Positions 7,583-32,243 of a DNA stretch of 39,810 bases are shown in pieces. Position 1 is the first letter of the stretch, and each line of letters begins with the position of its first letter. The notes beneath the pieces are model-generated. The model searched no databases. It saw nothing but the letters and a program-made list of their open reading frames with translations, and had not been told where the DNA came from. The stretch covers positions 1 to 39,810 of the forward strand of contig JAEEYQ010000036.1 of assembly GCA_016288215.1 (NCBI GenBank). Direction: 5' to 3'. The DNA comes from Lentisphaeria bacterium. Its GTDB lineage: Bacteria; Verrucomicrobiota; Lentisphaeria; Oligosphaerales; Oligosphaeraceae. The translations under genes and the position numbers were made by a program.

Positions 7583-8554
7583 TCAGGCGAAGAGGCCGGA
7601 GAGGGCATCGTCGCGTCCACCGGCGGGAGCGGCCAACGCCTCCTCCGTGGCCTTGGCCACCTCTGCCCGCGCGTCCGCGGCGGCCTGGTCGATTTGCTCT
7701 TGGGAAAGTCCCCTAGCCAACAGGCTGCGGGTGGCCAGCAGAAGGCTGTCCTTCTCCATCATCTTGGCCTCCTCCTCCCGCGTGCGGTAGACTCGGGGGT
7801 CGTTTTTGGAATGACCGCATTGGCGGTAGGTCATCAGTTCCAGCAGCTCGGGTCCGCCCCCACCACGAACCCGCGCAATGGCCTCTTGGGCAACGGTATA
7901 CACCTCCTCCACATTGAAGGCCTCGTGTCGGCTGCCCTTCATGCCATAGGCCTCCGCCCGCCGGAAGAGCTCAGTGCTGGCGCAGGAATGGGCAACGGGC
8001 GTGCTCATGCCATAGAGATTGTTCTCCAAGACGAAAAGGACAGGCAGTTTCCAAAGGGAGGCGATGTTCAGGCTTTCATGGAAGGTGCCCTGGTTGCTGG
8101 CTCCGTCACCGAAGAATGCGATAGCGATGTCATTGGACTGCTTGTACTTAAGAGCCAAGGCCGCGCCAGTGGCGATGGGAATGCCGCCGCCCGTGATGCC
8201 GTTGGTCCCCAAAAAATGGAGGTCAATGGCGCTCATGTGCTGAGAGCCGCCGCGGCCGCCGCAGTAGCCGGTCAGCTTGCCCATCAGCTCTCCCATGACC
8301 CGAGGGACCTGCAATCCCCTGGCCAGAAGATGGCCATGCCCACGATGATTGGAAATCAGCCAGTCCGTGGGCTTTGCGGCGAAAATGACGCCCACCGCGC
8401 TGGCCTCCTCTCCAATGCAGAAATGAGAGGTGCCCCCAAGGACCCCCTTGCTGAATAGATTGCCAAGGGTCTCCTCAAAGGTGCGGATGACGACCATCCT
8501 GCGAAACATGTTCAGCAGGTCATCGGTGGAAAGGCTGGAATTCGGGAACGCCAT
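7583..8554 (-). CDS. 2-oxo acid dehydrogenase E1 component alpha subunit (TPP-dependent)
   Basis: 323 aa, with E1-alpha motifs …HFCIGEEASAVG…NHRGHGHLLARG… and the TPP-binding region GDGASNQG. It lies immediately upstream of the E1-beta gene on the same strand. No E2 or E3 gene is adjacent. Confidence 0.9.
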   Translation of the reverse strand: MAFPNSSLSTDDLLNMFRRMVVIRTFEETLGNLFSKGVLGGTSHFCIGEEASAVGVIFAAKPTDWLISNHRGHGHLLARGLQVPRVMGELMGKLTGYCGGRGGSQHMSAIDLHFLGTNGITGGGIPIATGAALALKYKQSNDIAIAFFGDGASNQGTFHESLNIASLWKLPVLFVLENNLYGMSTPVAHSCASTELFRRAEAYGMKGSRHEAFNVEEVYTVAQEAIARVRGGGGPELLELMTYRQCGHSKNDPRVYRTREEEAKMMEKDSLLLATRSLLARGLSQEQIDQAAADARAEVAKATEEALAAPAGGRDDALSGLFA

Positions 8555-8670
8555 AACTGCTGCCTCGCGTTTGAAACTGAAAAAAGGGCGATATTGACCA
8601 TTAAACGCATGAATTCAGGGGCATATTGGGCGGAGGGGCAAAATCCCGCGGTGACATGAGAGGAAAAAGG

Positions 8671-8712
8671 GGATAATTGGAATTAGAAATTAGGAATTAG
8701 AAATTAGGAATG
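8671..8712. repeat. Six tandem degenerate heptads (AGRAATT), equivalent to two and a half copies of GGAATTAGAAATTA
   Basis: ggataat|tggaatt|agaaatt|aggaatt|agaaatt|aggaatg read directly. Located in the divergent promoter region between the E1-alpha gene (minus strand) and uraA (plus strand). Confidence 0.6.
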
Positions 8713-8955
8713 TATACCACATTAGGGTAGAGTATGTTTTTGTCGAAACGACATTGTAGTTCGCGCTTCAGTCATGGGGGCAAATGTGTCTCCTCTGATT
8801 TCACAGCCCCAACAAGCTGTATTCATCGCATTCGGCAACGGCGGCATTCGTTCAAGTGGGACCAATGTGCTATATTATAGAAAGGGATTTTGGCGGTTCC
8901 TTCAGAGCGTGAACGGGGCCGCCGGTTCATCAACCCATCAAAATGTGGAGGATAC

Positions 8956-11032: not shown

Positions 11033-11108
11033 TGGTACCGGGCATCGGGTTCGAACCAATGACACGTGGATTATGATTCCACTGCTCTACCGACTGAGCT
11101 AGCCCGGC
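11033..11108 (-). tRNA. tRNA-Met (anticodon CAT; elongator-type, tRNA-Ile2/lysidine identity not excluded), CCA encoded
   Basis: The reverse complement folds as a cloverleaf. Acceptor stem GCCGGGC/GCCCGGU (G1-U72). D-arm GCTC-AGTCGGTA-GAGC. Anticodon stem-loop GTGGA-AUCAUAA-TCCAC. 5-nt variable loop. T-arm ATTGG-TTCGAAC-CCGAT. Discriminator A, then CCA. Confidence 0.85.
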
Positions 11109-12740: not shown

Positions 12741-13865
12741 TTAGCTGAAGAACTTCTTGGCCTTCTCCACAAAGGCCTTCCATTTGGGATAGATTTGGTT
12801 CTTGTCCCCACTGTCCTCGAACTTCTGCAGCAGCTCCTTCTGCTCCGCGCTCAACTTCGTGGGAACCTCCACGACCACGTGGACGTACTGGTCGCCCCGA
12901 TCCCGTCCCCTGACCAACGACGCCACGCCTTTTCCCTTCATGCGGAAGGTGGCGCCGTTTTGGGTCCCTGGAGGAATGGTCAACTCCGCCCGTCCGTCAA
13001 TCGTGGGGACTTCCACCTGGCCGCCCAAGGCCGCCGTGCAGAAGGAAATCGGCACTTCGCAGTGCAGACTCGTTCCGTCCCGCTCGAAAATCTCGTGGGG
13101 GCGAACTCGAAACAGCACATACAAGTCCCCCGCCGGCCCGCCGTTGCTGCCCGCCTCCCCTTCTCCGGAGACACGGAGCCGCGAGCCGGTGTCCACGCCA
13201 GCGGGCACCCGCAGAGAAATGGTCCGCTTCTTGCGGACAACCCCCTTGCCACGGCAGGTCTGGCAGGGCTTCTCCACAATCTGACCCGTTCCACGGCAGG
13301 TGGAGCAGGTTTGGCGGACACTGAAAAAGCCTTGGGACATCGTCACTTGCCCACGGCCATGGCAGGTGGGGCAGGTCTTCTTGGAGGAACCCGGCTCCGC
13401 GCCTGTGCCGTGGCAATGGTCGCAGTTTTCCGTGTGCTGGAAGCTGATCTCCTTGTTGCAGCCGAAGACCGCCTCCTCAAAGTTGATTTGCAGTTCGTAG
13501 GAGAGGTCATCCCCTTCCATGGGGCCGTTGGCGGCACGGCCGCCGCCGCCGAACAGATCGCTGAAGAATCCGCCGCCGGCGCCGCCGAACACTTGAGAGA
13601 ACAAGTCCTCCGCGGACATGCCGCTTCCGCCAGCGTTGCCTTTGGTGTACATGTCATGGCCCAGCTGGTCATAGCGCTGCCGTTTGTTCGCGTCCCCAAG
13701 AACCTCGTAGGCCGCGGAAATCTGCTTGAATTTCTCCTCCGCCGCCTTGTCCCCCGGATTACGGTCCGGATGGTATTTCATGGCCAGTTTTCGGTAGGCC
13801 TTTTTGATGTCCTCCGCCGAGGCGTCACGGGACACTTCCAATATTGAATAATAATCCTCTGCCAT
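12741..13865 (-). CDS. dnaJ: Molecular chaperone DnaJ
   Basis: J-domain with HPD ([11 protein letters not shown]…KYHPDRNP). Gly/Phe-rich linker. Four CxxCxGxG zinc-finger repeats. C-terminal peptide-binding domains. Confidence 0.95.
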
Positions 13866-21036: not shown

Positions 21037-22044
21037 ATGCCTATCATTGGAATGCTCAGTGTCGTGGCCTTCATCGCGATATTGGTGATGGCGTTCATCT
21101 TCTTCCACTATTTCGGCGTCTGGATTCAGGCCTGGGCCTCCGGCGCCCACATCGGCGTCTGGAAACTGGTGGGAATGTCCCTCCGCAAAGTCAACGCCTC
21201 CCAAATTGTCCGCGCCTACATCCAGTTGCGGCGGGCGGGGTTGGACATGATCAGCACCGACGAGCTGGAAGGCCATTTCATGGCCGGCGGCAACGTGCTC
21301 AACGTGGTCAACGCCCTTATCGCGGCGGACAAGGCCAACATCCCCCTGACCTTCAAGCGCGCCACCGCCATCGACTTGGCCGGCCGTGACGTCTTCGACG
21401 CCGTCCGCATGAGCGTCAACCCCCGCGTCATCGACTGCCCCAACCCCTCCAAAGGCCGCCTGACGGTGGACGCCGTCGCCAAAGACGGCATTCAAGTGAA
21501 GGCCAAGGCCCGCGTCACCGTCCGCGCCAACCTGGACAGCCTGGTCGGCGGCGCCACGGAGGAAACCATCATCGCCCGCGTTGGCGAGGGCATCGTCTCC
21601 ACCATCGGCTCCTCCGAATCCTACAAGGTAGTCCTTGAGAACCCGGACAACATCTCCCAGACCGTTCTCAAAAAGGGGCTGGACAGCGGAACCGCCTTCG
21701 AAATCCTCTCCATTGACATCGCCGACGTGGACGTTGGCGACAACATCGGCTCCCGCCTCCAGGCCGATCAGGCGGAGGCGGACACCCGCGTCGCGCAGGC
21801 GAACGCCGAAGTCCGCCGCGCCGCGGCCGTCGCCGAAGAGCAGGAGATGCGGGCCCGCGTTCAGGAGATGCAGGCCAAAGTCGTGGCCGCCCAGGCGGAA
21901 GTGCCGTTGGCCATGGCCGAAGCCCTCAAGAGCGGCAAACTCGGCGTCATGGACTACTATCGGCTGGAGAACCTGCAGGCGGACACGGAGATGCGCAACA
22001 GCATCACGGGTCCCGAAGCCTCCGAGTCCAAGAAGACGGAATAG
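21037..22044 (+). CDS. floA: Flotillin-like protein FloA (YqfA/UPF0365 family, SPFH superfamily)
   Basis: Near-colinear similarity to B. subtilis FloA: N-terminal TM segment, …[16 protein letters not shown]…[41 protein letters not shown]…, and a C-terminal EA-rich coiled coil ending [25 protein letters not shown]. Confidence 0.9.
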
Positions 22045-22053
22045 TCCCCCAAG

Positions 22054-22076
22054 CCCCTGCCCATGACGGGCAGGGG
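22054..22076 (+). terminator. Hairpin after floA (perfect 9-bp stem cccctgccc-atgac-gggcagggg), no U-run
   Basis: Perfect inverted repeat starting 10 bp after the floA stop codon. Confidence 0.4.
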
Positions 22077-22179
22077 AGCGTCCTGCGGGGCATGAATCAT
22101 AAGTTCCTATCCCACAGGATGTTACATATTATTCAGCGACTCTGCGCAAAGCCATCATTCAACTGGATTGCCCTTCGTC

Positions 22180-22920
22180 ATGAAAGAAGTTTTCCCTTTC
22201 ATCATCGCGTTTGCATTCGTGGCCCTCAGAATCTTTCTGGCCGCCAAACGCAATTCCGCGGAACGCTCCTATCGCGAGTCATCCCCCAATCCGCCCAATC
22301 GGCCCTCGCATCAGCCCCCTAGCCTCCGCGGCAACACCACAACTGGCGGACGCCCCGTCGGCGGCCCTCGGCCCTCATCCATGGGCCGTCCGTCGCCAAT
22401 CGCCCCGCCGTCGTCCCCGCCGCCGCAGCTCCCCAGCCTCTTTGACGAGCTGCTAGGGCTGGACAAGCTGGAGCAGGAGGAGGCCGCCAAAGACGCCATG
22501 CCGTTGGAGCCGCAACGTCCAATCGACTCCCAACCGACGGCGCCGCCGCTGCCTCGACAGGAGAGACCCCAAAACCAACGGAAGAGCCATAAGGGCCAAC
22601 GGCAACGGGATGAGGCTTCCGCCTTCGGCGCCGCCGCCCATGGAAAGAAAAGCAACGCCATGGGCAAGGTCTTCACTCAAAAGGACAAGTCCCATGTGGA
22701 CAGCTCGACCTTCGCCAAGAGCAAGACGACGGCCATCAGCCCGAAGGACAGCGCCCCCAAGAACCTCGCCCAGATGATGGAGCAGCTCAAGTCCAATCAG
22801 CGACGGTCCAAACGGGGCCTGAGGCTCCCCTACCCGGTCACGTTCACAAACCGTCAGGAACTTCGCAAGGCGTTGGTCATGAACGAGATCCTCAGCCGTC
22901 CAAGGGCCTACGACATCTAA
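22180..22920 (+). CDS. Proline-rich low-complexity membrane protein (hypothetical), single N-terminal TM helix
   Basis: An ATG at 22180 gives MKEVFPFIIAFAFVALRIFLAAKR (a TM helix), then a P/S/Q-rich disordered region. The ORF-track start at 22168 is TTG. In high-GC DNA it could be spurious, but it occupies the slot downstream of floA. Confidence 0.5.
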   Translation: MKEVFPFIIAFAFVALRIFLAAKRNSAERSYRESSPNPPNRPSHQPPSLRGNTTTGGRPVGGPRPSSMGRPSPIAPPSSPPPQLPSLFDELLGLDKLEQEEAAKDAMPLEPQRPIDSQPTAPPLPRQERPQNQRKSHKGQRQRDEASAFGAAAHGKKSNAMGKVFTQKDKSHVDSSTFAKSKTTAISPKDSAPKNLAQMMEQLKSNQRRSKRGLRLPYPVTFTNRQELRKALVMNEILSRPRAYDI

Positions 22921-23058
22921 CCGCGCCCCGCTAGCCACATCCGCTGAAAAATCGTATCGTCAAATCAAAACGATGCAAAATGTGGCATGAAATTTGCTCT
23001 ATATACCATATACTATATGGTACGCAAAACACCGCCAACTGTCAATCCCGAAATCTTA

Positions 23059-24429
23059 ATGAGCTATTCCGTTGTCCTTGACATATGCCGCCGCATACAA
23101 GACGCCGGCGGCCGCGCCCTGCTAGTGGGCGGTTGCGTGCGGGATGCCCTTATGGGGTTGGACAGCAAGGACTTCGATATCGAGGTCCATGGCCTATCCC
23201 CCGAACAGCTGCGTCAATGCGTCGGCTCCCGCTATGATTTGGACTTGGTGGGAGCCAGTTTCGGCGTCTTCAAGGTGCATCATTACGACATCGACATCTC
23301 TTTGCCCCGCGTGGAGAACAAGACGGGAGCCGGTCATCGGGGCTTCATGGTGGAGGCCGTGGCGAATCTTCCCATCGAACAGGCGGCGGCGCGGCGGGAC
23401 TTCACCATCAACGCCATCATGAAGGATCCGCTGAGCGGCGAGATTCTCGATCCATGGAAGGGGCTGGAGGACTTGAAGGCCAAATGCCTTCGTCATGTGA
23501 GCGACCACTTTTCCGAAGACCCGCTGCGGGTGCTCCGCGGCATGCAGTTTGCCGCCCGCTTCGCCTTCCATGGGGCGCCGGAGACCCTTCGCCTCTGCGC
23601 CACCATGAGCCAAGACGAACTGCCGCGGGAGCGACTGGGCACGGAATGGGAGAAGCTGCTGCTGAAGGGGATACGCCCCTCGGCGGGGCTTGAGTTTCTC
23701 CGCGCCTGCGGCTGGCTTCGCCATTATCCGGAGCTGGCGGCCTTGGTGGGTTGCCAACAGGATCCCCGCTGGCATCCGGAGGGGGATGTGTGGCAGCATA
23801 CCCTGCGGGCCCTTGACGCCGCGGCGGGCCGTCGCACAGGAGAGCCGGCCGATGACCTTGCCGTGGGACTGGCGGTTCTTTGCCATGATTTCGGAAAGCC
23901 CGCCACCACCCGTGTCCGCAAAAGCGATGGCCGCATCATCAGCCATGGCCATGACACCATGGGCGAGGCGCCGACTCGCCATTTCGTGGAGCGGTTGTGG
24001 AATCAGCCTCGGCTGGAGGACCAAGTGGTTCGGCTGGTCCTCTGCCATATGCAGCCGGAGTGCCTGGTCCGCAACAACGCTTCCGACAAGGCGTTCCGCA
24101 AACTCGCCCTGCGCGTGAAACGGCCGGATCTCCTCGCCAACGTGGCCGCCTGCGACGCCTTGGCCGCCAATCCCGACGCGGACCTGTCCTCCATCGATCA
24201 GTTCATGGAAAAGATGCAAGCCCTTGCCGTGGAGAAGGCTCCGCCAAAACCCATCATCTTGGGCCGTCATCTTGTCCAGCGGGGCTTTGCCCCCGGCCCC
24301 AATTTCAAACCCATCTTGGACAAATGCTTCGAGGCCCAGCTGGATGGCAAATTCACCGACGAACCCGGCGGCCTCCGCTTCCTGGACCGCCTTCTTGCGT
24401 GGAAAACCCATAAACCGCAGACAATCTAA
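23059..24429 (+). CDS. cca: CCA-adding tRNA nucleotidyltransferase / poly(A) polymerase family with C-terminal HD domain
   Basis: Pol-beta NTase head motif LLVGGCVRDALMGLDSKDFDIEV…, RRDFTINA and an HD motif (CHDFGKP). I chose the ATG at 23059 (MSYSVVLDICRR…); the ORF-track start at 22987 adds a 24-aa extension spanning a palindrome. Confidence 0.85.
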   Translation: MSYSVVLDICRRIQDAGGRALLVGGCVRDALMGLDSKDFDIEVHGLSPEQLRQCVGSRYDLDLVGASFGVFKVHHYDIDISLPRVENKTGAGHRGFMVEAVANLPIEQAAARRDFTINAIMKDPLSGEILDPWKGLEDLKAKCLRHVSDHFSEDPLRVLRGMQFAARFAFHGAPETLRLCATMSQDELPRERLGTEWEKLLLKGIRPSAGLEFLRACGWLRHYPELAALVGCQQDPRWHPEGDVWQHTLRALDAAAGRRTGEPADDLAVGLAVLCHDFGKPATTRVRKSDGRIISHGHDTMGEAPTRHFVERLWNQPRLEDQVVRLVLCHMQPECLVRNNASDKAFRKLALRVKRPDLLANVAACDALAANPDADLSSIDQFMEKMQALAVEKAPPKPIILGRHLVQRGFAPGPNFKPILDKCFEAQLDGKFTDEPGGLRFLDRLLAWKTHKPQTI

Positions 24430-24629
24430 AACCGATTCAATAATCGTAAATTATTAATAATAAATAACTTATATTAATTCTAAAAACAGCATTTGGCTTT
24501 TTCTTCATGCAAATCATCATGCTGAATCGGTCTCTCCCCCAGACATCAAAATGTGCGGAAAAGGCTATAGAGGCAGAAGGCGAGGCATGCTGAAAAAGAA
24601 GAGCCGCTTTGGCGGCGGCAGGATATTAG

Positions 24630-24782
24630 CCGTGGGTAAGCGCAACGCCGTAGGCGTAAGCGTAACCCACGGTGCACGAGAAAAATAGAGTTTCAGAACC
24701 GCGAAGCGTTGACAGGAGCCTGACGTGGGCGAAGCAAAGCGAAACCCACGAACAGATTTCCTGCCACCATTAACGTGGTCCC
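24630..24782. repeat. Two tandem related hairpins, plus a third partial one, built on CGTGGG/CCCACG boxes and AAGCG repeats (REP-like or small structured RNA)
   Basis: Hairpin A: ccgtgggt-[aagcgcaacgccgtaggcgtaagcgta]-acccacgg at 24630-24672. Hairpin B is a shortened copy: cgtggg-[cgaagcaaagcgaaa]-cccacg at 24724-24750. A further cgtgg box lies at 24774. The segment is ~52% GC, wedged between the AT-rich flanks of the island edge. Confidence 0.4.
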
Positions 24783-24914
24783 AATTGTGTCTTTCAGGAA
24801 GAATAGTGTTTTATATAACTATTCAGAATCCTGATAATCCTGGAAAGCCGTTCCCATGGCTGAATTATGACCATGAACTTTGATTTTATGGATAGGTTCT
24901 GAATAGTAACAATC

Positions 24915-25583
24915 TCATGATTTATGGAAATTTGGAAACAGTAGGATTTCAAAAAATAGTTCTGGGTCGTTGCAACTGTCAACAGGTACCACTGGCTTAT
25001 CTCCCATTTTTGTGACTTTTAAGGTAATAGCTGGTTTTAATTCAGTAAAAATACAATATATGAATTCTGTGCAATATATCTTTTCAGATTCTGATAAATC
25101 CAATTTATAATCAAATGGCCTATTCATATATTTGTTGGTTATGTTCAATAATATAGAAGAATCTTCAATACTTTGATTCTTTTCTCGAAGACGATAGACA
25201 GCCGCTCCATCACCATTCAACAGAAAGTCAACAAGAGACACTTCTGTAACAGAACCAATACCTGTATAGTCATTTACATCAGCATGCAAGACGGTGACAT
25301 TTTTATCATTCTCATTGATTATGATTCCCACATGTGAAAACCGTTTATCATGTTGTGAAAAGTCACGGCACATATCTGACCAAAATCCATTTCCTTTTCG
25401 ACAAATAACATCTCCTGTTTTAAGTATTTTATTAATATTATTTTCAATAATATAATGATTTATTCTTTCTTTTGTTATGGATAGTTTTATTGCGGAATGA
25501 TATTTATAAACAATAATAAGAAAAATAGAAAGAAATAATAATGAATAAAATACCACAATTATTTTATTTCGATATTTTTTCAT
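24915..25583 (-). CDS. YiiX/YaeF-family permuted papain-like (NlpC/P60 superfamily) amidase with N-terminal membrane anchor
   Basis: Colinear with E. coli YiiX motifs: GDVICRK matches GDIIF, SHVGII matches SHTGM (catalytic His), FDYKLDLSESEKIYCTEFIY matches YDFSFSWSDDRQYCSEVVW (catalytic Cys). N-terminal TM helix IIVVFYSLLFLSIFLIIV. Confidence 0.8.
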   Translation of the reverse strand: MKKYRNKIIVVFYSLLFLSIFLIIVYKYHSAIKLSITKERINHYIIENNINKILKTGDVICRKGNGFWSDMCRDFSQHDKRFSHVGIIINENDKNVTVLHADVNDYTGIGSVTEVSLVDFLLNGDGAAVYRLREKNQSIEDSSILLNITNKYMNRPFDYKLDLSESEKIYCTEFIYCIFTELKPAITLKVTKMGDKPVVPVDSCNDPELFFEILLFPNFHKS

Positions 25584-25668
25584 ATATTTATGCTTTTAAT
25601 TAGTAAAATCTCCTCTAACTATTATTCAAAATTCATGTTAGAGGAGATTATCTTATCAATACTTATAC

Positions 25669-26124
25669 TTAATTGAAACTCTGCTTTGTAACACATACTT
25701 TCCAATTTCCATTCTCATCTTTTTCAGCAGGAATGGAATATTCTTTTGGTTCATCATCCAAGTATGATAAAATATTAGCGACACCTTTTTTTTCACTGAC
25801 CATTTTAACATCGACTACATCTAGTTTAGAAATTATGAGTGCCTCGTCTGCTTGTTCATTCATTCCCATAGTAGCTAACTTTACCATTGAACTTAATTGC
25901 TCAAATGTTTCATACCCTGTTTTATTGCAAATTTCTTTGGCCATATCTTTGTTACTTGTATAAAGTGCTAGCATAAACTTCTGTCCAAGTTCACCGATGA
26001 TTTCTTCATCACTCTTTCCATTTCCACAGCCGTTCATAGTAGCCATTAGTCCAATTACAAATATGATAGCAAGTCCTCTCTGGACAAGTGTTTTTTTAAT
26101 AACCTGACAAATTGTGTGTGTCAT
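25669..26124 (-). CDS. Small lipoprotein (hypothetical)
   Basis: AGGAG RBS 6 nt before the ATG at 26124. Signal peptide and lipobox …GLAIIFVIGLMATMNG-C. The ORF-track start at 26190 adds 22 aa lacking an RBS. Confidence 0.65.
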   Translation of the reverse strand: MTHTICQVIKKTLVQRGLAIIFVIGLMATMNGCGNGKSDEEIIGELGQKFMLALYTSNKDMAKEICNKTGYETFEQLSSMVKLATMGMNEQADEALIISKLDVVDVKMVSEKKGVANILSYLDDEPKEYSIPAEKDENGNWKVCVTKQSFN

Positions 26125-26153
26125 TTTTGACTCCTGTTCATTGATATTAACCT

Positions 26154-26206
26154 GAATCCGTGAAGTAAAAATCAGTTGGTTCCCCTTCACGGATTCTGTC
26201 GTTTTT
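26154..26206 (+). terminator. 12-bp perfect inverted repeat (gaatccgtgaag / cttcacggattc) with 19-nt loop, followed by TGTCGTTTTT
   Basis: Read directly from the sequence. Lies ~30 nt upstream of the lipoprotein SD on the minus strand. On the plus strand it looks like an intrinsic terminator, with no annotated plus-strand gene upstream. Confidence 0.4.
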
Positions 26207-26598
26207 CATAAAGGGAATCTTCCAACTTGCTTTTCAATGCTTCGCGGTGTGCTATTGCCGTTCCACATCTTCTCTGTTTTTGAACTCTATGTTTTCATAT
26301 TTGCTCCTTTTTGCTCATTGAATACAATCTCTTCCGTCTTTTCAGTACACGTCACGCTCTGCCTCTGCCTTAGAGACATCCAAAAGCATGCGTTGCAATT
26401 GGAACACTTTTCAGCAATTCTCAAAAAAAGCGAATCAACAAAATTACATCATGTTTGCCTCATTGATGGCGGTTGGAAAATGGAAAATATGTTCTAGAAT
26501 ATACTGTTAACCAATATGTTGTAGAATTATTTTTCTGCATTTTATTTGTTTCTTTGTAAGTTTAATTTACGGATTCTGGATTACATTATTGGGATATT

Positions 26599-27039
26599 TC
26601 AAGGAAAGTCAACTCCCATAAATGGCGAGCATCTATATAATCTGTGGACTATCATTGGCAATGCAATGAATAATCCATATTTCATTGTGGCTATTTTGGC
26701 ATAATTTGAACATGAAGGTCTCATACAGCATCTTAATCGTATATAAGAGGGAGCATAATGTTGATAAATAATGATGAAAAGAAGGAATATAAAATCACTA
26801 CAAACTAAAATATCAAAACACCAAAAAATAAGCTGTAACTTTGTAAACCACATTTTACTATAGCATATTGAATAACTACATAAAATATGTATAGAAAGTA
26901 TGTGAATTCCCTGAAGAATTAATAATAGAAAAAATAAACTTATAATATATGAAATTTTAACTTTTGGTCGATAAAGTCGTTTTATTGGAGCTGTTACCAC
27001 ATTATACTTTGGGGAATTGAAATAAGTTACAGTAATCAT
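26599..27039 (-). CDS. YidD-family (DUF37, membrane protein insertion efficiency factor-like) protein with a ~60-aa hydrophobic N-terminal extension
   Basis: C-terminal 80 aa …IIIYQHYAPSYIRLRCCMRPSCSNYAKIATMKYGLFIALPMIVHRLYRCSPFMGVDFP align with the YidD consensus YQR.ISP…CRF.PTCS.Y……RC.P…GG.DPVP. An alternative start at 26853 (MWFTKL…) would give a canonical 84-aa YidD. Confidence 0.7.
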   Translation of the reverse strand: MITVTYFNSPKYNVVTAPIKRLYRPKVKISYIISLFFLLLILQGIHILSIHILCSYSICYSKMWFTKLQLIFWCFDILVCSDFIFLLFIIIYQHYAPSYIRLRCCMRPSCSNYAKIATMKYGLFIALPMIVHRLYRCSPFMGVDFP

Positions 27040-27161
27040 TTAACATTAACAACCCTATTTATTTTAATCGTTTTTTGAAAAACATTAAGGAAATAATAAT
27101 TCTTGCACGAAATTATGTATTTCATGCAAGAATTATATACAGAAACCAATTTTCTAATACT

Positions 27162-27842
27162 TTAGTTACTCTTCTTGTCTCGTAACTGCTGTTTCATTGC
27201 CTGAACCATTCGTTCAATATCTTCAGATGAATCCATAGCTACTTTAAACTTATCTCCTGGAACAACAATTTGAAATTTCGTGGTATCTATCTGTCGAGAA
27301 GCAACTCCCTTTTTAGAGAATATGCAACCTCCTTTTTGTGCGAACCATTTTGGTGTGACTGATTCACTTGTTGTTGATATCGAAGTAACATCTTTGTAAA
27401 AATACTCTTCAGTATTTTCTTCCTTTGCATCTGCACACATGCAGAATGAATATTCATATACATATATCTGGGTTTTTGAGAAAAATAGCCAAGTTGACAT
27501 CCATGTCGAACTGACATATTTTCCACTTTCCGTCTCACGCACAAAATTATCATCAATCCAATAGCCTATAAAGTTTACAGGTGGTATTTCTGATATTTCT
27601 TCTTCATCAAGCCCAATTTTGTTAATTGCACGTTCTTTCAGGTTGAGCGATTCAATTTTAGACTGAACCAGTTTCTCATAATCTGCATCCTTAAGACCAA
27701 AATGTCGAAGGATACAGCAATCTTGCAAAAAATATGACAAAACTTTTCGCTGTTCTGCATTTTTTGTCAATTTCTTTGCATGTCTAAGAATCACTTCTCT
27801 TGATGCATTTTCAGGAACATTCAGCGGAACTTTTACTGACAT
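27162..27842 (-). CDS. Hypothetical cytosolic protein (226 aa), fourth gene of the island cassette
   Basis: AAGGAGA RBS 8 nt before the ATG. No TM segments and no recognisable domain. Its start lies 45 bp after the stop of the upstream ZnR/TPR gene. Confidence 0.7.
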   Translation of the reverse strand: MSVKVPLNVPENASREVILRHAKKLTKNAEQRKVLSYFLQDCCILRHFGLKDADYEKLVQSKIESLNLKERAINKIGLDEEEISEIPPVNFIGYWIDDNFVRETESGKYVSSTWMSTWLFFSKTQIYVYEYSFCMCADAKEENTEEYFYKDVTSISTTSESVTPKWFAQKGGCIFSKKGVASRQIDTTKFQIVVPGDKFKVAMDSSEDIERMVQAMKQQLRDKKSN

Positions 27843-27887
27843 TGTACCGTCTCCTTTTGTTGCGTTTTTCTATCACTAATGAGGATA

Positions 27888-28823
27888 TTATTCCTCAAAA
27901 TCATCCTTATTTATTTGCCATGTCTTGATGCCAGTAGCAATTATCGTAATGACTTGGATTATTGTCCAAATAATTATGGCAACACTCATTACCTCACTAC
28001 CTTCGTTTTCAGTATTTCCAACAATAATGAATAATATAATTGAAATTAAAAGCCAAATTACACCATATAGTATCTTTCCAACATATATCAAGCCTGCACC
28101 TGGGAAAATAAAAGCAAGAAGCAAAGCTTCAAACATACTCTTCTTTTTCTTAAATGCAGTAAAAGTTTGTTTTGGACCTTCATCTGCAATTGAGAGTCTT
28201 ATATTATCCTCTTGTGGTAGGGAAGAAATATCTAATCGAGAGAGTGGATTAACACCTAAAACAGAATAGAAATTTTTGATATCTGTCTCAGATACTCCAG
28301 CCTCTTTTGCCTTTGCCAATTCCTCATTCCATTTAGGTGAAATTTTCAAGAATTTTCTTTCAAAATAATCCAGTTTAACATAAGCCTTAGCAAAATAATA
28401 GATGCCACGTGGTTCAATCATAATTGCAGAGTCAAGATATTTCATTGTTTTATCAATGGTAGCTCGATCTAGTAAACTTGCCTTTTTTCCATTTAGCAAG
28501 CAAATAGCAGAATAGAAAAACAATTCTGAATTATCAAAGTTTGATTCAATTGCTTTTTCAAATGCCTCTAAGGCTTTTTCATGCAGTTTTAACTTCAAAT
28601 AGCACATTCCAATGGAAGCATTAATATCTGCATTTTCTGGGTTTTCAGCCAAAGCCTTCTTATAGGCATTAGCATATTTGTTCAATTCCGCCATTGGCAT
28701 ATCACTGACACTATTGAAGGTCGTAACAACAATAGGTCTTTGACAAAACTCACAAACCTTTTGTGATGTATCCGTAGGCGCACCACAACTAGGACACATT
28801 AAATTGACTACTTCTGTTGACAT
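27888..28823 (-). CDS. Zinc-ribbon + TPR-repeat + C-terminal TM2-like two-helix membrane domain protein
   Basis: AAGGAG RBS. N-terminal CPSCG…CEFCQ zinc ribbon. TPR-like helices (AYKKALAENPENADINASIGMCYLKLKLHEKALEAFEKAIE…). C-terminal FPGAGLIYVGKILYGVIWLLIS + IIWTIIQVITIIATGI, resembling TM2/DUF-type GxGxxYxG…GxIW helices. Confidence 0.8.
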   Translation of the reverse strand: MSTEVVNLMCPSCGAPTDTSQKVCEFCQRPIVVTTFNSVSDMPMAELNKYANAYKKALAENPENADINASIGMCYLKLKLHEKALEAFEKAIESNFDNSELFFYSAICLLNGKKASLLDRATIDKTMKYLDSAIMIEPRGIYYFAKAYVKLDYFERKFLKISPKWNEELAKAKEAGVSETDIKNFYSVLGVNPLSRLDISSLPQEDNIRLSIADEGPKQTFTAFKKKKSMFEALLLAFIFPGAGLIYVGKILYGVIWLLISIILFIIVGNTENEGSEVMSVAIIIWTIIQVITIIATGIKTWQINKDDFEE

Positions 28824-28841
28824 TTTTTCTCCTTCTTGTTG

Positions 28842-29600
28842 TTATTTCTTGCACTCTGCAATAACTTCTTGGAGTCTTCCATCAATCATGGATAGTTCTT
28901 CAAGCAAATTGTCCCTATTTCCACTCATCATCTTGTCATAAAAGTCTTGCACTTTTTGAGAAACTACCCGATATTTCTCAGATTGTGAAATATTCCCTAC
29001 TCTTGGAAGAGAATACTTAATCTTTTCTTTACAGGCCTTGATTCTTTTAACAATATCCTTATTCAATGATGGCTGCTTCTCACATATTTCTAAAAATACA
29101 TAAAGATCATCAGGTGTTCTAACATTTTGAGGCAACAATTCCATTCCATCATTTTGAAGTTTTTGTGCAGTCAATAGAAGAAAAATCTTTATAAGACACA
29201 CCACAACTACTACAATCTGACAACTAATCTCTAGAGAAAAATAGAAGCGTTCTGTTGGAAGCCATAAACTAATTAACCACAAGCAAAAAGATAGAATAGT
29301 TGCTTGACTAATTGCTCCAGCTATTCCAATATATCCTGCTCCTGTTTGTTGGCGTTTCTTCAAAAGTTGCGGAAGTACCCCATTAATAATTCCATAGAAT
29401 GCAAATATAACAATTAATTCTATCCAAATGAGTCTATACCAGAAATATTGACTTCTATGCCAGAACGATGATGCGTCTGCATCAATTCTAAACATTATCA
29501 TCCCTATTATGACAATTGCAATTGCTACAATTGGACATAGGATAATGCCAATTATCTTGTGTGCTCCTAAATTTTCTGCTCTACTATCTTGATTTAACAT
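28842..29600 (-). CDS. Polytopic membrane protein (about 4 TM helices) with ~100-aa C-terminal cytoplasmic helical domain
   Basis: AGGAG RBS. Four hydrophobic helices (IIGIILCPIVAIAIVIIGMIMF, LIWIELIVIFAFYGIINGVL, IGIAGAISQATILSFCLWLISLWL, ISCQIVVVVVCLIKIFLLLTA). Its start lies 11 bp after the SPFH gene stop. Confidence 0.75.
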   Translation of the reverse strand: MLNQDSRAENLGAHKIIGIILCPIVAIAIVIIGMIMFRIDADASSFWHRSQYFWYRLIWIELIVIFAFYGIINGVLPQLLKKRQQTGAGYIGIAGAISQATILSFCLWLISLWLPTERFYFSLEISCQIVVVVVCLIKIFLLLTAQKLQNDGMELLPQNVRTPDDLYVFLEICEKQPSLNKDIVKRIKACKEKIKYSLPRVGNISQSEKYRVVSQKVQDFYDKMMSGNRDNLLEELSMIDGRLQEVIAECKK

Positions 29601-29611
29601 GTATGTTTCTC

Positions 29612-30628
29612 CTACATCTGGTCAATAATAGCAGCCTTTTTAACCTTATATTCCTCCTCTGTCAAAATTCCCTCTTCAAAAAGCATTTTCAGTTTTTTTA
29701 GTTTAGCCAGTACATCCTGTTCTCCCATTTGTCCATTGTTCTGGGAAACAGATTGTGCCGTTTGAGAAGCTAAAGGGATACCAGCATTAACTGCTAAACC
29801 CAGACCTGCTCCTAGCCCCATCATATTACCAACTGCTCCATTGTTATTTGCTGCATCTTTCATGACTTCAAATCCTTTGGCGGCCATATATCCTTGACCA
29901 ACTTGCACAGAACTCAATTGTTGCATTTCCATCTTCTTTGCCATCACATCCTGAATCTTCTTCATTTCCTCAGGTGAGATGCTAATGCTGCTACAAGAAA
30001 AGTTTACCAACTCAATCCCAAATCGATTAAATTCATCTACAACATTATCTCTAACAGTTTGAGAAATATCAGCTAGTTTTGAGCTCAATTGAAAAACAGA
30101 CAATCCATTGCTAATCATATTACTGACAGTTTGATTAAATTTTTCAATAATCTCACCGATAAAATACTCGTATATTTTTTTACTATCTGCTCCTAGTTGT
30201 GCCCCCACAACCTGCGTAACAAAACTTCTTGAATCATCAATTCTAAATCCCCACTGACCAAATGCTCCTACATTAATCGGAAAACCTAATGCAGGATCAA
30301 AAAGAGGAATACGCTGTGGTGTCCCCCATTTCATATTTCTTTTGACTGTTTTATTGACATACCAAACCTCAGCAGTAAATGGGGTTTTCCCACCAAAAAA
30401 TGAGTTTACCAATTTCCCAAGTAAAGGAAGATTTCCAGTTACTAGCGTATGCGTACCTGCTGTAAATGTGTCTAATGCAACCCCACCCTTAACGAATATT
30501 GCTTCTTGCCCTTCATTTACAACAAGTTGACTACCTAAGCGAAGTTCATATTGATTTTCTGACATAAACTTATGTACAATAAAATCATCTGAAGGAACAT
30601 CCCATTTTACCAAATCTAATACCGCCAT
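29612..30628 (-). CDS. SPFH/Band-7 protein of the Band_7_1 (COG4260, YdjI-like 'virion core protein') family with C-terminal SHOCT domain
   Basis: AAGGAGAAAAACC RBS. N-terminal region is colinear with B. subtilis YdjI (MAVLDLVKWDVPSDDFIVHKF…GSQLVVNEGQEAIFVKGG…). Gly-rich linker. C-terminal DVLAKLKKLKMLFEEGILTEEEYKVKKAAIIDQM is a textbook SHOCT. Confidence 0.85.
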   Translation of the reverse strand: MAVLDLVKWDVPSDDFIVHKFMSENQYELRLGSQLVVNEGQEAIFVKGGVALDTFTAGTHTLVTGNLPLLGKLVNSFFGGKTPFTAEVWYVNKTVKRNMKWGTPQRIPLFDPALGFPINVGAFGQWGFRIDDSRSFVTQVVGAQLGADSKKIYEYFIGEIIEKFNQTVSNMISNGLSVFQLSSKLADISQTVRDNVVDEFNRFGIELVNFSCSSISISPEEMKKIQDVMAKKMEMQQLSSVQVGQGYMAAKGFEVMKDAANNNGAVGNMMGLGAGLGLAVNAGIPLASQTAQSVSQNNGQMGEQDVLAKLKKLKMLFEEGILTEEEYKVKKAAIIDQM

Positions 30629-30687
30629 GGTTTTTCTCCTTGTTTTGAAGGCCTGTGTTTTTCACACAAAAAAGAGCGCCTCTCTTC

Positions 30688-30805
30688 GTGATTTCCTGAG
30701 GTTTAGGACGACCTACGTAATAGCACGAAAAGAGACGCTCAACGCGGAGTGCTCCAGCGTGTGCTATTACGTGAAATTCTAAAGGTCCTAATTTCAGGAA
30801 ATCAC
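30688..30805. repeat. 118-nt three-segment nested inverted repeat (12 + 7 + 11 bp helices), a long imperfect hairpin at the island border
   Basis: gtgatttcctga (30688-30699) pairs with tcaggaaatcac (30794-30805). ttaggac (30703-30709) pairs with gtcctaa (30785-30791). cgtaatagcac (30716-30726) pairs with gtgctattacg (30761-30771). The central loop is 34 nt. Confidence 0.6.
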
Positions 30806-31016
30806 AAAGCACTACTCCAGCGATAAGTACCGCTGGCTATGTCAAAAGAGAGATAACGCTTTTTCTATGTTTTGAAGACTCCTTGATTAAATGACATCCT
30901 GTAGCCGAATGCTACAAAAACAATTATAATTTATCGCTCTAACCTTGATTTACAAGTTTGTTCAAAAAAATATCTTCACATGCTACTCAAAAAGGTTGAC
31001 AATGGCCACTGCCAAA

Positions 31017-32243
31017 TCAGATGTCGGCGGCCGGAATGCAGACAACATTTTTGTTCGGTAGCGGGACAGGGGTATCGCAGGCGCACAGGACCGCTCCCTT
31101 CAGGACCGGCTTGCCGAGTTTCCCAAGGACCTTGAAATGGCTTGCGTCATCAGACTTTGGCGTGGCCGTTTTCTTGCATTCAACGGGGTGGAAGCCCTCC
31201 GCCGTGTCGATGACAAGGCCAATCTCCCGCTGGTCGCGATCCCTGTAGTAGAACAGGTTATCGATTTTCATACCCGCATTCCAATATGTCTTGATGATTT
31301 CGGAGATGCACCATGTCTCGAAAATGGCCCCTGCCATCGCGCCCGCCTCCAGTGTCTCTGGCGTTGGCCAATGCGTGAGGTAGGAGCAGAGCCCCGTGTC
31401 CAAAAAATACAGTTTCGGCGTCTTGACCAGTCGGGCAGTCAGACTGCTGGCGTAGGGGGGCAGAAGATGGATGAGATGCGACTCCTTGAGAATGGCAAGC
31501 CAGTTTTGGACCGTCGTCACATCAACACTCGCGTCGCGCGACAGTTCGCTGGCGTTGACCATCTGTCCCGTTCTCGCCGCACAGGAGCAAATGAACTTGT
31601 AGAAGCGGTCAAGGTCATGCACGTTCTTGAGATTCCGTATATCGCGCTCCAAATAGGTGCTTACATAGCTGGAATAGAACAAGTTACGCTCCTCGGGCGT
31701 GGCGTTCAGGACCTCTGGATATGTCCCCTGCCATATGCTGCGGAACAGCTCCATGACGCCTGGCCTTTTTCCTTCGGCGAGAGGGACTTCCGGCGTGAAT
31801 GGAAGGTTGCCGCGCCCCGCGAGCTCGGCCTGCGAGATGCCCCCCATGTCGAAAATGCCAATACGGCCCGCAAGAGAGTCGGACACGCCTTTCATCAGCT
31901 CAAACTGCTGCGAACCGGTCAGCCAAAACATCCCCTTGGCATTGTCTGGATCGCTAAAGCGCCGCTCGTCAATGACCATCTTGATGTAGCTCAGAAGGCT
32001 CGGAACATATTGGACTTCATCAAGCAGGACCGGAGGGCTGAAGCGGTCCAGAAAGCCCTTGGGGTCCTCCTTGGCCAGCAGCCGCAGATCCACATCATCG
32101 AACGTGACGTATTTTCTGTCCGTTCCCGCAAGTTTCCGCAGCAAAGTCGTTTTCCCCACCTGACGCGCTCCTGTCAGCAACAAGGCAGGGAAGAAGCGGT
32201 TAGCCGCCTCGACGGCCTTTTGGATCTGCCTTTCAATGAACAT
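31017..32243 (-). CDS. AAA+ superfamily ATPase with C-terminal DUF4143 (COG1373-type)
   Basis: Walker A LLLTGARQVGKTTLL, Walker B-like VLLDEVQ, and a DUF4143-like C-terminal half. The antisense 429-aa ORF (31137-32426, plus strand) is rejected as a shadow. Confidence 0.85.
   Translation of the reverse strand: MFIERQIQKAVEAANRFFPALLLTGARQVGKTTLLRKLAGTDRKYVTFDDVDLRLLAKEDPKGFLDRFSPPVLLDEVQYVPSLLSYIKMVIDERRFSDPDNAKGMFWLTGSQQFELMKGVSDSLAGRIGIFDMGGISQAELAGRGNLPFTPEVPLAEGKRPGVMELFRSIWQGTYPEVLNATPEERNLFYSSYVSTYLERDIRNLKNVHDLDRFYKFICSCAARTGQMVNASELSRDASVDVTTVQNWLAILKESHLIHLLPPYASSLTARLVKTPKLYFLDTGLCSYLTHWPTPETLEAGAMAGAIFETWCISEIIKTYWNAGMKIDNLFYYRDRDQREIGLVIDTAEGFHPVECKKTATPKSDDASHFKVLGKLGKPVLKGAVLCACDTPVPLPNKNVVCIPAADI

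Follow-up and report, generated by a model that had tools for sequence, protein, structure and literature searches.

A low-GC islet with a five-gene SPFH operon and a candidate leader RNA in a Lentisphaeria bacterium: evidence for horizontal acquisition

The stretch of DNA analyzed here (the window, 39,810 nt, contig JAEEYQ010000036.1 of a Lentisphaeria bacterium) contains a compositionally foreign block at positions 24758–31016, between the gene of a CCA-adding enzyme (cca) and that of an ATPase with a DUF4143 domain. We consider it probable, at roughly 60%, that this block was acquired horizontally, as an islet lacking its own mobility genes, and that its core is a leader-gated operon of five genes encoding a membrane scaffold. 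The five genes encode, in this order, an SPFH protein, a partner with four predicted transmembrane helices (4-TM partner), a zinc-ribbon/TPR protein, a protein of unknown family (p4) and a YidD-like protein. Two further genes, for a lipoprotein-like protein and a Peptidase_C92 amidase, complete the island. This reading is carried by the composition of the block, the recurrence of the operon at other sites in other genomes, the absence of the island at this site in a near-identical strain and the conserved structure of an RNA element in front of the first gene. Coordinates are collected in Table 1; contigs and loci used for comparison carry L numbers.

The GC content of the block is 34.0%, compared to 58.8% in the rest of the window. 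Along the sequence it dips to 28–39% between ~24.75 and 31.0 kb, where the window average is ~59%. The GC content at third codon positions (GC3) shows the same contrast, with 0.21–0.29 for the seven island genes and 0.71–0.87 for six flanking genes (floA, cca, the DUF4143 ATPase gene, asd and two others). Seven open reading frames (ORFs) fill the block and all seven are on the minus strand. A Pfam scan of the window proteins gave no integrase, transposase or recombinase domain, and a repeat search detected no direct or inverted repeats flanking the island. There is no tRNA or tmRNA target at the island; the sole tRNA in the window is a tRNA-Met at 11033, 13 kb away. On the right side the island starts directly where the DUF4143 ATPase gene ends with its stop codon (31016/31017), and the same junction is present, with 2 single nucleotide polymorphisms (SNPs), in an independent 2.5-kb contig (L002). 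The foreign block starts on the left between 24757 and ~24800.

A preliminary description of this DNA, made from the sequence alone, had reported the low-GC block, its right edge, the common orientation of the seven genes and the lack of a recombinase, transposase, tRNA target or flanking direct repeat, and all these points are borne out. Its protein assignments (Peptidase_C92/YiiX, YidD, zinc ribbon with TPR, Band_7_1 with SHOCT, and DUF4143 with AAA_14 in the right flank) agree with the Pfam matches. The drop in GC content was placed exactly at the cca stop codon, but the segment 24430–24757 is native intergenic DNA that is also found in an island-free strain. The description further listed a 10-bp identity, GTGTGCTATT, while calling it not compelling. 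The identity exists. In 6.6 kb, chance alone would yield ~20 10-mer matches of this kind (N^2/2/4^10, our own arithmetic). The right copy is one arm of the leader RNA hairpin discussed below. As an insertion repeat GTGTGCTATT was rejected as a chance-level match.

Genomic context was recovered for SPFH relatives of 93, 88, 69, 63, 60 and 59% identity and for one locus found via a partner protein. The operon, or its core of SPFH, 4-TM and zinc-ribbon genes, is present in seven other contexts (L083, L084, L085, L091, L094, L096 and L100–109). In every recovered context the SPFH gene is directly followed by a gene for a ~250-aa membrane protein and then by a zinc-ribbon gene. The complete order of the window (SPFH, 4-TM partner, zinc-ribbon/TPR protein, p4 with ~200–226 aa, YidD-like protein) is found in L083, L085 and L100–109, and in L084 the order is the same up to the contig end, with p4 retained after the zinc-ribbon/TPR gene in all of these. 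YidD-like homologues occupy the same position in L083, L085 (as an uncalled ORF) and L100–L109. The operon is compositionally distinct in these genomes as well, with 37–42% GC against 45–57% in the flanks and GC3 values of 0.26–0.46 against 0.56–0.76.

The neighbors of the operon differ in each context. In L083 they are AbiEi/AbiEii and a SLFN_AlbA_2 gene, in L084 a Ser/Thr kinase, in L085, L091 and L094 glycoside hydrolases and metabolic genes, in L096 integrases and a P22-type antirepressor, and in L100–109 an acyl-carrier/radical-SAM cluster. The low-GC block of L101 measures 6.7 kb and includes a Mrr_cat gene in the gap between leader position and SPFH gene and an Endonuclease_NS gene at its tail. 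The partner proteins of the window are 45–64% identical to those of L083, whereas the SPFH protein is 93% identical, so the partners diverge much faster. Named relatives belong to the Lentisphaeria, Opitutaceae and Chitinivibrionia only. The lipoprotein and C92 genes were found in none of the other recovered loci and are separated from the operon by a 470-bp spacer, which indicates that the island is a five-gene operon with two extra genes and not a seven-gene unit.

No match was obtained for the island DNA against plasmids and phages in distant mode or for the 4-TM partner in a tblastn search of plasmids and phages, and the IMG/VR viral contigs contained neither a relative of the SPFH protein nor the leader motif. 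The best plasmid-borne match of the SPFH protein is on a Bacteroides plasmid, with 39% identity over two thirds of the protein.

The SPFH protein has the Band_7_1 plus SHOCT architecture, which is common (PMC3581485), and 2815 homologues were found at E ≤ 1e-20. No N-terminal hydrophobic membrane anchor is apparent in its sequence. For the 4-TM partner AlphaFold2 (AF2) gave four long N-terminal helices, of low confidence but hydrophobic in sequence, and a helical region at residues 160–252 with a predicted local distance difference test score of ~71–89. This protein, like 40 relatives, has no match in Pfam, NCBIfam, PADLOC, PHROG or the PDB. Its family counts 126 representatives among 1.84 billion proteins, all of ~240–265 aa. 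The zinc-ribbon/TPR protein contains a CPSCG...CEFC motif. In the window and L084 this protein ends in a hydrophobic extension of ~110 aa, which its counterparts in L083 (4959–5543), L085 (11884–12477) and L101 lack; the extension gives a weak match to phrog_10292 (E 4e-5). The p4 protein shows weak matches to bPH_3 (E 0.016) and PH (E 0.046) and none in the PDB, and its AF2 single-sequence model is poor. Sequence and profile searches of the PDB with the SPFH protein, p4 and the 4-TM partner returned nothing meaningful.

The closest parallel among described systems is the pspA-ydjGHI operon of Bacillus subtilis. There, the soluble SPFH protein YdjI (SamI) depends for its membrane localization on two membrane proteins, YdjH and the zinc-ribbon protein YdjG (PMC8581546; PMC11237479; bioRxiv 10.64898/2026.02.06.704340), and the YdjGHI/SamGHI complex has a part in envelope-stress signaling (PMC8581546; PMC9239133; PMC11237479; bioRxiv 10.64898/2026.02.06.704340). 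In both cases an anchor-less SPFH protein of the Band_7 family is encoded beside a membrane protein of ~250 aa and a zinc-ribbon protein, for which the island sequence shows C-terminal hydrophobic helices. In the island the gene order is reversed, with SPFH first, the SPFH protein has SHOCT and not a zinc ribbon as its C-terminal domain, the operon also includes PH-like and YidD-like genes, and the host belongs to a different phylum. A TPM domain, which YdjH has, was not found in the 252-aa partner or in 40 relatives, and none of the island proteins matched PspA/IM30. The middle of the island zinc protein consists of TPR repeats, while that of YdjG is described as YpeB/NTF2-like (PMC11237479), a comparison made by description. 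The lack of a TPM domain and of pspA makes the parallel with YdjGHI an analogy and not an orthology.

The operons of SPFH and NfeD proteins (QmcA/YbbJ, YqiK/YqiJ, FloA/NfeD2) likewise combine an SPFH gene with the gene of a small polytopic membrane partner. An NfeD domain was not detected by Pfam in any island protein, and in contrast to these systems the island SPFH protein is without a visible N-terminal anchor. The host moreover has a FloA flotillin gene of native GC content (21037–22044), two genes upstream of the island. Since this native floA is already there, the island SPFH protein would be an additional system and not a replacement.

In view of these comparisons, a possible mode of action can be considered in which the core operon (26599–30965) encodes a membrane-scaffold complex. 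The soluble Band_7_1 SPFH protein would be drawn to the inner face of the membrane by the 4-TM partner, and the latter, together with the zinc-ribbon/TPR protein, could dock the SPFH oligomer. By analogy with YdjGHI/SamGHI, the most likely function of the complex is to sense or buffer perturbations of the membrane and to organize other membrane proteins. The operon is a member of a small family circulating among bacteria of the Planctomycetes–Verrucomicrobia–Chlamydiae (PVC) group (Lentisphaeria, Opitutaceae), at a different site in each genome and with low GC content throughout. Expression may be gated by a 179-nt leader through the choice between a long antiterminator hairpin and a terminator fold. 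The lipoprotein and YiiX-type amidase genes are further low-GC cargo with predicted envelope-related products. Insertion probably took place by recombination, with one crossover inside a repeated intergenic element just 3′ of cca.

The proposed leader is located in the gap from the end of the DUF4143 ATPase gene to the start codon of the SPFH gene. Its column identity with the upstream sequences of L083 and L096 is 89%, the SPFH protein of L096 being 59% identical. RNAalifold gave a short P1 hairpin followed by an extended hairpin of ~45 bp, the putative antiterminator. Of the 57 pairs, 11 are changed on both sides, and 97% of the cells are paired. None of 500 shuffles reached this result and slid controls gave 0–1. 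The folding z-score of the window leader is −6.4. About 10 G–U pairs work solely on the operon-sense strand, and such strand specificity favors an RNA over a DNA cruciform. If the 3′ half is folded alone, a 17-bp stem followed by U6 appears in all three sequences, with −31 to −33 kcal/mol, as expected for a terminator. This stem and the long hairpin are mutually exclusive. The terminator helix is 96% paired and nearly invariant, that is, conserved but not covarying. The layout suggests a candidate terminator/antiterminator switch whose default fold in the model would allow read-through.

As in attenuation and riboswitch-type leaders, the element is located between a promoter-like region and the first gene, has compensatory changes and can adopt exclusive folds. 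Unlike those, it belongs to no Rfam family and its near-perfect antiterminator of ~45 bp is unusually long. At permissive E-values Rfam gave only noise for the leader, with best scores of 19.5 bits (threshold 70) and 17.3 bits (threshold 50), and a scan of the window at gathering thresholds detected nothing except the tRNA. A covariance model of the leader, run over 1.41 Mb of PVC loci, recovered only the training sequences. Because three sequences are few, we regard the leader as a strong candidate and not as a proven family. The AT-rich region upstream of it is, by eye, partly conserved with L096 to ~30965.

Other explanations of the long palindrome and its surroundings were discarded. An attC site of an integron does not fit since there is no integrase according to Pfam and the hairpin lies 5′ of the first gene, ~170 nt inside the island edge; conservation also extends beyond the hairpin, the G–U pairs are in the sense strand, and no GTTRRRY/RYYYAAC cores are visible by eye. 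A function as a single-stranded DNA hairpin was ruled out by position, sequence conservation and the strand-specific G–U pairs. A pseudoknot in which the apical hairpin pairs with the 3′ tail gave way to the simpler model of alternative folds with a terminator.

The sister operons of L085–L090, L094/L095 and L100–L105 are without this leader. In its place there is a (GCAA)n tract and, after it, a palindrome plus a hairpin that carries a T-run. Samples of one locus differ in the number of units, which is 8, 6 and 9 in L085, L088 and L090 and 13, 6 and 13 in L100–L102; it is 23 in both L094 and L095. Several contigs begin inside the tract. Such varying copy numbers are the signature of a hypermutable repeat and make the tract a candidate phase-variation switch, judged from sequence. 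Phase-variable contingency loci with tetranucleotide repeats are known from, for example, Haemophilus and Neisseria. The length-variable tracts upstream of the operons in L085–L090, L094 and L100–L105 resemble these. The window operon differs, as no (GCAA)n tract of at least 3 units occurs in the window.

At the left side, comparison with a near-identical strain is informative. The island-free contig L001 encodes an identical cca protein and agrees with the window at 22765–24683 with 1 mismatch in 1919 nt (99.95% identity). The next 26 nt past 24683 contain six SNPs; an indel of 34 nt and two further SNPs come after these, and the similarity ends entirely after 24757. L098, a contig of 154 kb (JAEEGL013289206.1) and of the same type, overlaps L001 by 1.1 kb, from inside the intergenic element onward, without any difference. 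Beyond the break, L001 and L098 continue with a tyrosine phosphatase gene of native GC content and SGNH-hydrolase-like ORFs, which occur nowhere in the window. The island is absent 3′ of cca in this strain, with other genes in place. A GTDB genome scan with cca found relatives of at best 58–59% identity (Lentisphaerae metagenome-assembled genomes) and no species-level comparison genome.

The segment 24430–24757 consists of an AT-rich spacer followed by a hairpin-rich element of 55% GC (patch 24530–24790). A second copy, with 87–89% identity, is present in another locus (L099, 1191–1665), where it lies 3′ of a helicase gene, with a partial copy in inverted orientation after it. The element is located 3′ of a plus-strand gene and between convergent genes in all three sequences (window, L001 and L099), and it is single-copy in the window. 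The copy in L001 (1702–2100) is longer by a 34-nt module and has a low-complexity tail rich in GAGACG. The element had no Rfam match, also at permissive E-values, and fold-alignment of both strands gave no informative covariation. A metagenome scan with the junction motif retrieved two contigs only, one from the island-free strain and one from the other locus with the element. From its sequence and distribution, the element behaves like an extragenic repeat of the repetitive extragenic palindrome/bacterial interspersed mosaic element (REP/BIME) type. The break in homology inside the element can mean a recombination crossover at this position or an assembly mis-join. It is compatible with insertion by recombination there.

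Several observations weigh against horizontal acquisition of a stress-related scaffold operon. The clean empty cca/DUF4143 junction that the preliminary description proposed to look for was not found; the comparison strain has the phosphatase gene and the SGNH-like ORFs instead, and the island is not its only difference from the window. The left junction is covered by one contig and the switch occurs within a repeat, so that a mis-join is conceivable there. The lack of an integrase, transposase, tRNA target and direct repeats leaves the mechanism of insertion unproven. Neither a low-GC donor genome nor a genome with the operon at native composition was found, and the low GC content persists in every host, unlike what simple acquisition followed by amelioration would give. 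The leader rests on three distinct sequences. Finally, some loci have nuclease, toxin–antitoxin or defense-type neighbors (AbiE, SLFN/AlbA_2, NYN, Mrr_cat, Endonuclease_NS, DUF4143), which are as compatible with a function in defense or contingency as with one in stress.

The last point leads to the main rival explanation, which we regard as a minority option. The operon would be a contingency or defense module of the accessory defensome, membrane-acting and possibly of the abortive-infection type, which is kept off by the terminator leader or switched by a hypermutable repeat and is low in GC due to constant horizontal turnover. The patchy distribution between strains and the different sites in different genomes would be consistent with this, as would the neighboring AbiEi/AbiEii and SLFN_AlbA_2 genes in L083, the DUF4143 ATPase in the window, which matches the PADLOC candidate defense family PDC-S01 (E 5e-104), the NYN (L083) and Mrr_cat (L101) genes between leader and SPFH gene, the Endonuclease_NS gene at the tail of L101, and the integrases and P22 antirepressor adjoining the operon of L096. 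It would also account for (GCAA)n tracts that vary in length within the same locus (6, 8, 9 and 6, 13) and at which contigs break, and for partners that evolve faster than the SPFH protein (45% vs 93% identity to L083). However, none of the seven island proteins matched a model in PADLOC-DB 2.0, where the flanking ATPase alone was hit, and none of the papers listed in literature searches connects SPFH proteins with phage defense. The neighbors in L085, L091 and L094 are purely metabolic, the five-gene core has no recognizable effector enzyme, and the window copy is without a repeat tract.

Another scenario, which we consider unlikely, is that the adjacency of cca and the island is an assembly mis-join at the repeated intergenic element, the island and the DUF4143–asd side coming from elsewhere in the same or a related genome. 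The near-perfect identity with L001 up to 24683 and its collapse in an element also present in L099, the single contig over the left junction and the continuation of the 154-kb contig of the comparison strain into different genes would be in agreement with this. Yet the one further copy known of the element has 89% identity and is thus no evidence of an exact repeat long enough to mislead an assembler, the element is single-copy in the window, and the right junction and the low-GC-in-high-GC pattern are independently confirmed. A wholesale assembly artifact is excluded by the independent contigs. Acquisition of all seven genes at once, as the coherent envelope toolkit from a low-GC Firmicutes or Bacteroidota donor that the preliminary description had in mind, appears rather improbable. 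The seven genes have similar GC3 values (0.21–0.29) and the same orientation, and all predicted products are membrane- or envelope-associated. But only the five genes from SPFH to YidD-like co-occur elsewhere, the lipoprotein and C92 genes lie past the 470-bp spacer, the named relatives are PVC bacteria and Chitinivibrionia with the operon as a low-GC islet in all contexts, and the best plasmid match (Bacteroides) is the distant one mentioned above.

Least credible, and in our opinion very improbable, is an ancient resident region whose AT richness would come from selection (for silencing or slow translation, for instance) and not from transfer. The GC content of the operon is indeed low in each of the eight contexts, although the proteins have diverged to as little as 59% identity. 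Against this, the flanking genes differ in every genome and the near-identical strain is without the island at this site. The horizontal acquisition that the preliminary description suggested is supported by the GC3 contrast, the other genes after cca in the near-identical strain and the operons at unrelated sites, and it is this reading that we retain. Like classical genomic islands, the block has a sharp compositional contrast, strain-variable presence and an intergenic position between housekeeping genes. It differs in having no integrase, tRNA/tmRNA target or direct repeats and a size of just 6 kb, and in that a small operon recurs at many sites.

A genomic island as such is an ordinary kind of event. 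What is new is an uncharacterized SPFH operon family which is PVC-restricted as far as seen and compositionally foreign wherever found, together with a structured leader RNA absent from Rfam and a length-variable repeat in sister copies. It could extend the idea derived from YdjGHI/SamGHI, that membrane receptors recruit soluble SPFH proteins, to a second group of partners, unrelated to the first, in a phylum that has received little study. That the operon is foreign in every genome raises the question of its reservoir and of how a recombinase-free unit of 3–7 kb moves. The leader RNA and the tetranucleotide tract provide directly testable regulatory hypotheses. More speculatively, and with little confidence, the operon may be an undescribed, self-contained and PVC-restricted accessory module with a role in membrane-acting phage defense or contingency, AT-rich through continual exchange and switched on and off by one of two interchangeable devices, the new RNA with the 45-bp hairpin or (GCAA)n; nuclease genes (NYN, Mrr_cat) would be taken up at a slot beside the leader.

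Table 1. Features of the island and its surroundings (window positions unless a locus is given).
Feature	Position	Strand	Basis and remarks
cca (CCA-adding enzyme/poly(A) polymerase family), native left flank	22987–24429	+	Pfam PolyA_pol and HD; GC3 0.74
Native noncoding hairpin-rich element, ~330 nt, REP/BIME-like	24466–24800	+	shared with L001/L098; holds the break at 24683/24684
Compositionally foreign island	24758–31016	−	~6.2 kb, 34% GC; composition and GC3
Peptidase_C92 (YaeF/YiiX) membrane-anchored permuted papain-like amidase, accessory	24915–25583	−	PF05708, E 2.7e-13
Small secreted/lipoprotein-like protein, accessory	25669–26190	−	ORF and sequence; signal peptide followed by Cys
Noncoding spacer of 470 bp between operon and the two accessory genes	26128–26598		no substantial minus-strand ORF
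YidD-like protein with N-terminal hydrophobic extension, last operon gene	26599–27039	−	Pfam YidD, E 2.7e-12; TIGR00278
Near-perfect palindrome of 18 bp between p4 and YidD-like genes	27096–27136		repeat search
p4, 226 aa, unknown family, possibly PH-like	27162–27842	−	no family at threshold
Zinc-ribbon (N-terminal) and TPR protein with C-terminal hydrophobic helices	27888–28823	−	TPR_1 and related; weak Zn_ribbon_3
4-TM partner, 252 aa, four long hydrophobic helices and C-terminal helical domain	28842–29600	−	AF2 and sequence; uncharacterized family
SPFH protein (Band_7_1) with Gly/Ala/Met-rich low-complexity segment and C-terminal SHOCT, first operon gene	29612–30628	−	Band_7_1, E 6e-43; SHOCT, E 1e-6
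Structured leader RNA candidate, 179 nt	30667–30845	−	P1 hairpin and ~45-bp hairpin; covariation, folds
AT-rich upstream region with promoter-like sequence, right end of island	30846–31016	−	small hairpin at 30897–30919
AAA_14 and DUF4143 ATPase, native GC, right flank	31017–32243	−	Pfam; PADLOC PDC-S01; GC3 0.71
(GCAA)n tracts	L085 9824–9855; L088 316–339; L090 70–105; L094 9752–9843; L100–L102 ~7591–7642; starts of L103–L105		5′ of sister operons

The two accessory genes have few informative relatives. The C92 amidase gave a weak match to the NCBIfam YiiX model, below the cut-off, and 8 homologues, of which the best is 61% identical and none is named. The lipoprotein-like protein belongs to no Pfam, NCBIfam or PHROG family, and the true start of its gene is likely the ATG at 26127, judging from the reading frame. 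The 470-bp spacer has a slightly higher GC content of 38–44% and contains no convincing ORF. Between the p4 and YidD-like genes the window has a gap of 122 bp, while the two genes abut or overlap in L083 and L101.

In the flanks, exact protein look-ups for the DUF4143 ATPase and asd, with two start choices, matched no record. The region after floA (within 21037–22920) contains a 250-aa Pro/Ser-rich ORF without a family.

In the sister loci, the NYN gene of L083 (2518–3084) separates the SPFH gene from the regulatory device upstream of it and is low in GC like the operon. In L101, the Mrr_cat gene (7879–8898) has the same position and the Endonuclease_NS gene (12920–13672) lies at the tail, both again with low GC content. 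A 66-nt hairpin with a Shine-Dalgarno-like sequence precedes the SLFN_AlbA_2 gene in L083 (6954–7019) and is 77% conserved 3′ of the operon in L096 (13078–13143), where no SLFN_AlbA_2 gene follows. Its presence in both loci suggests an ancestral arrangement in which the operon and the SLFN gene were together.

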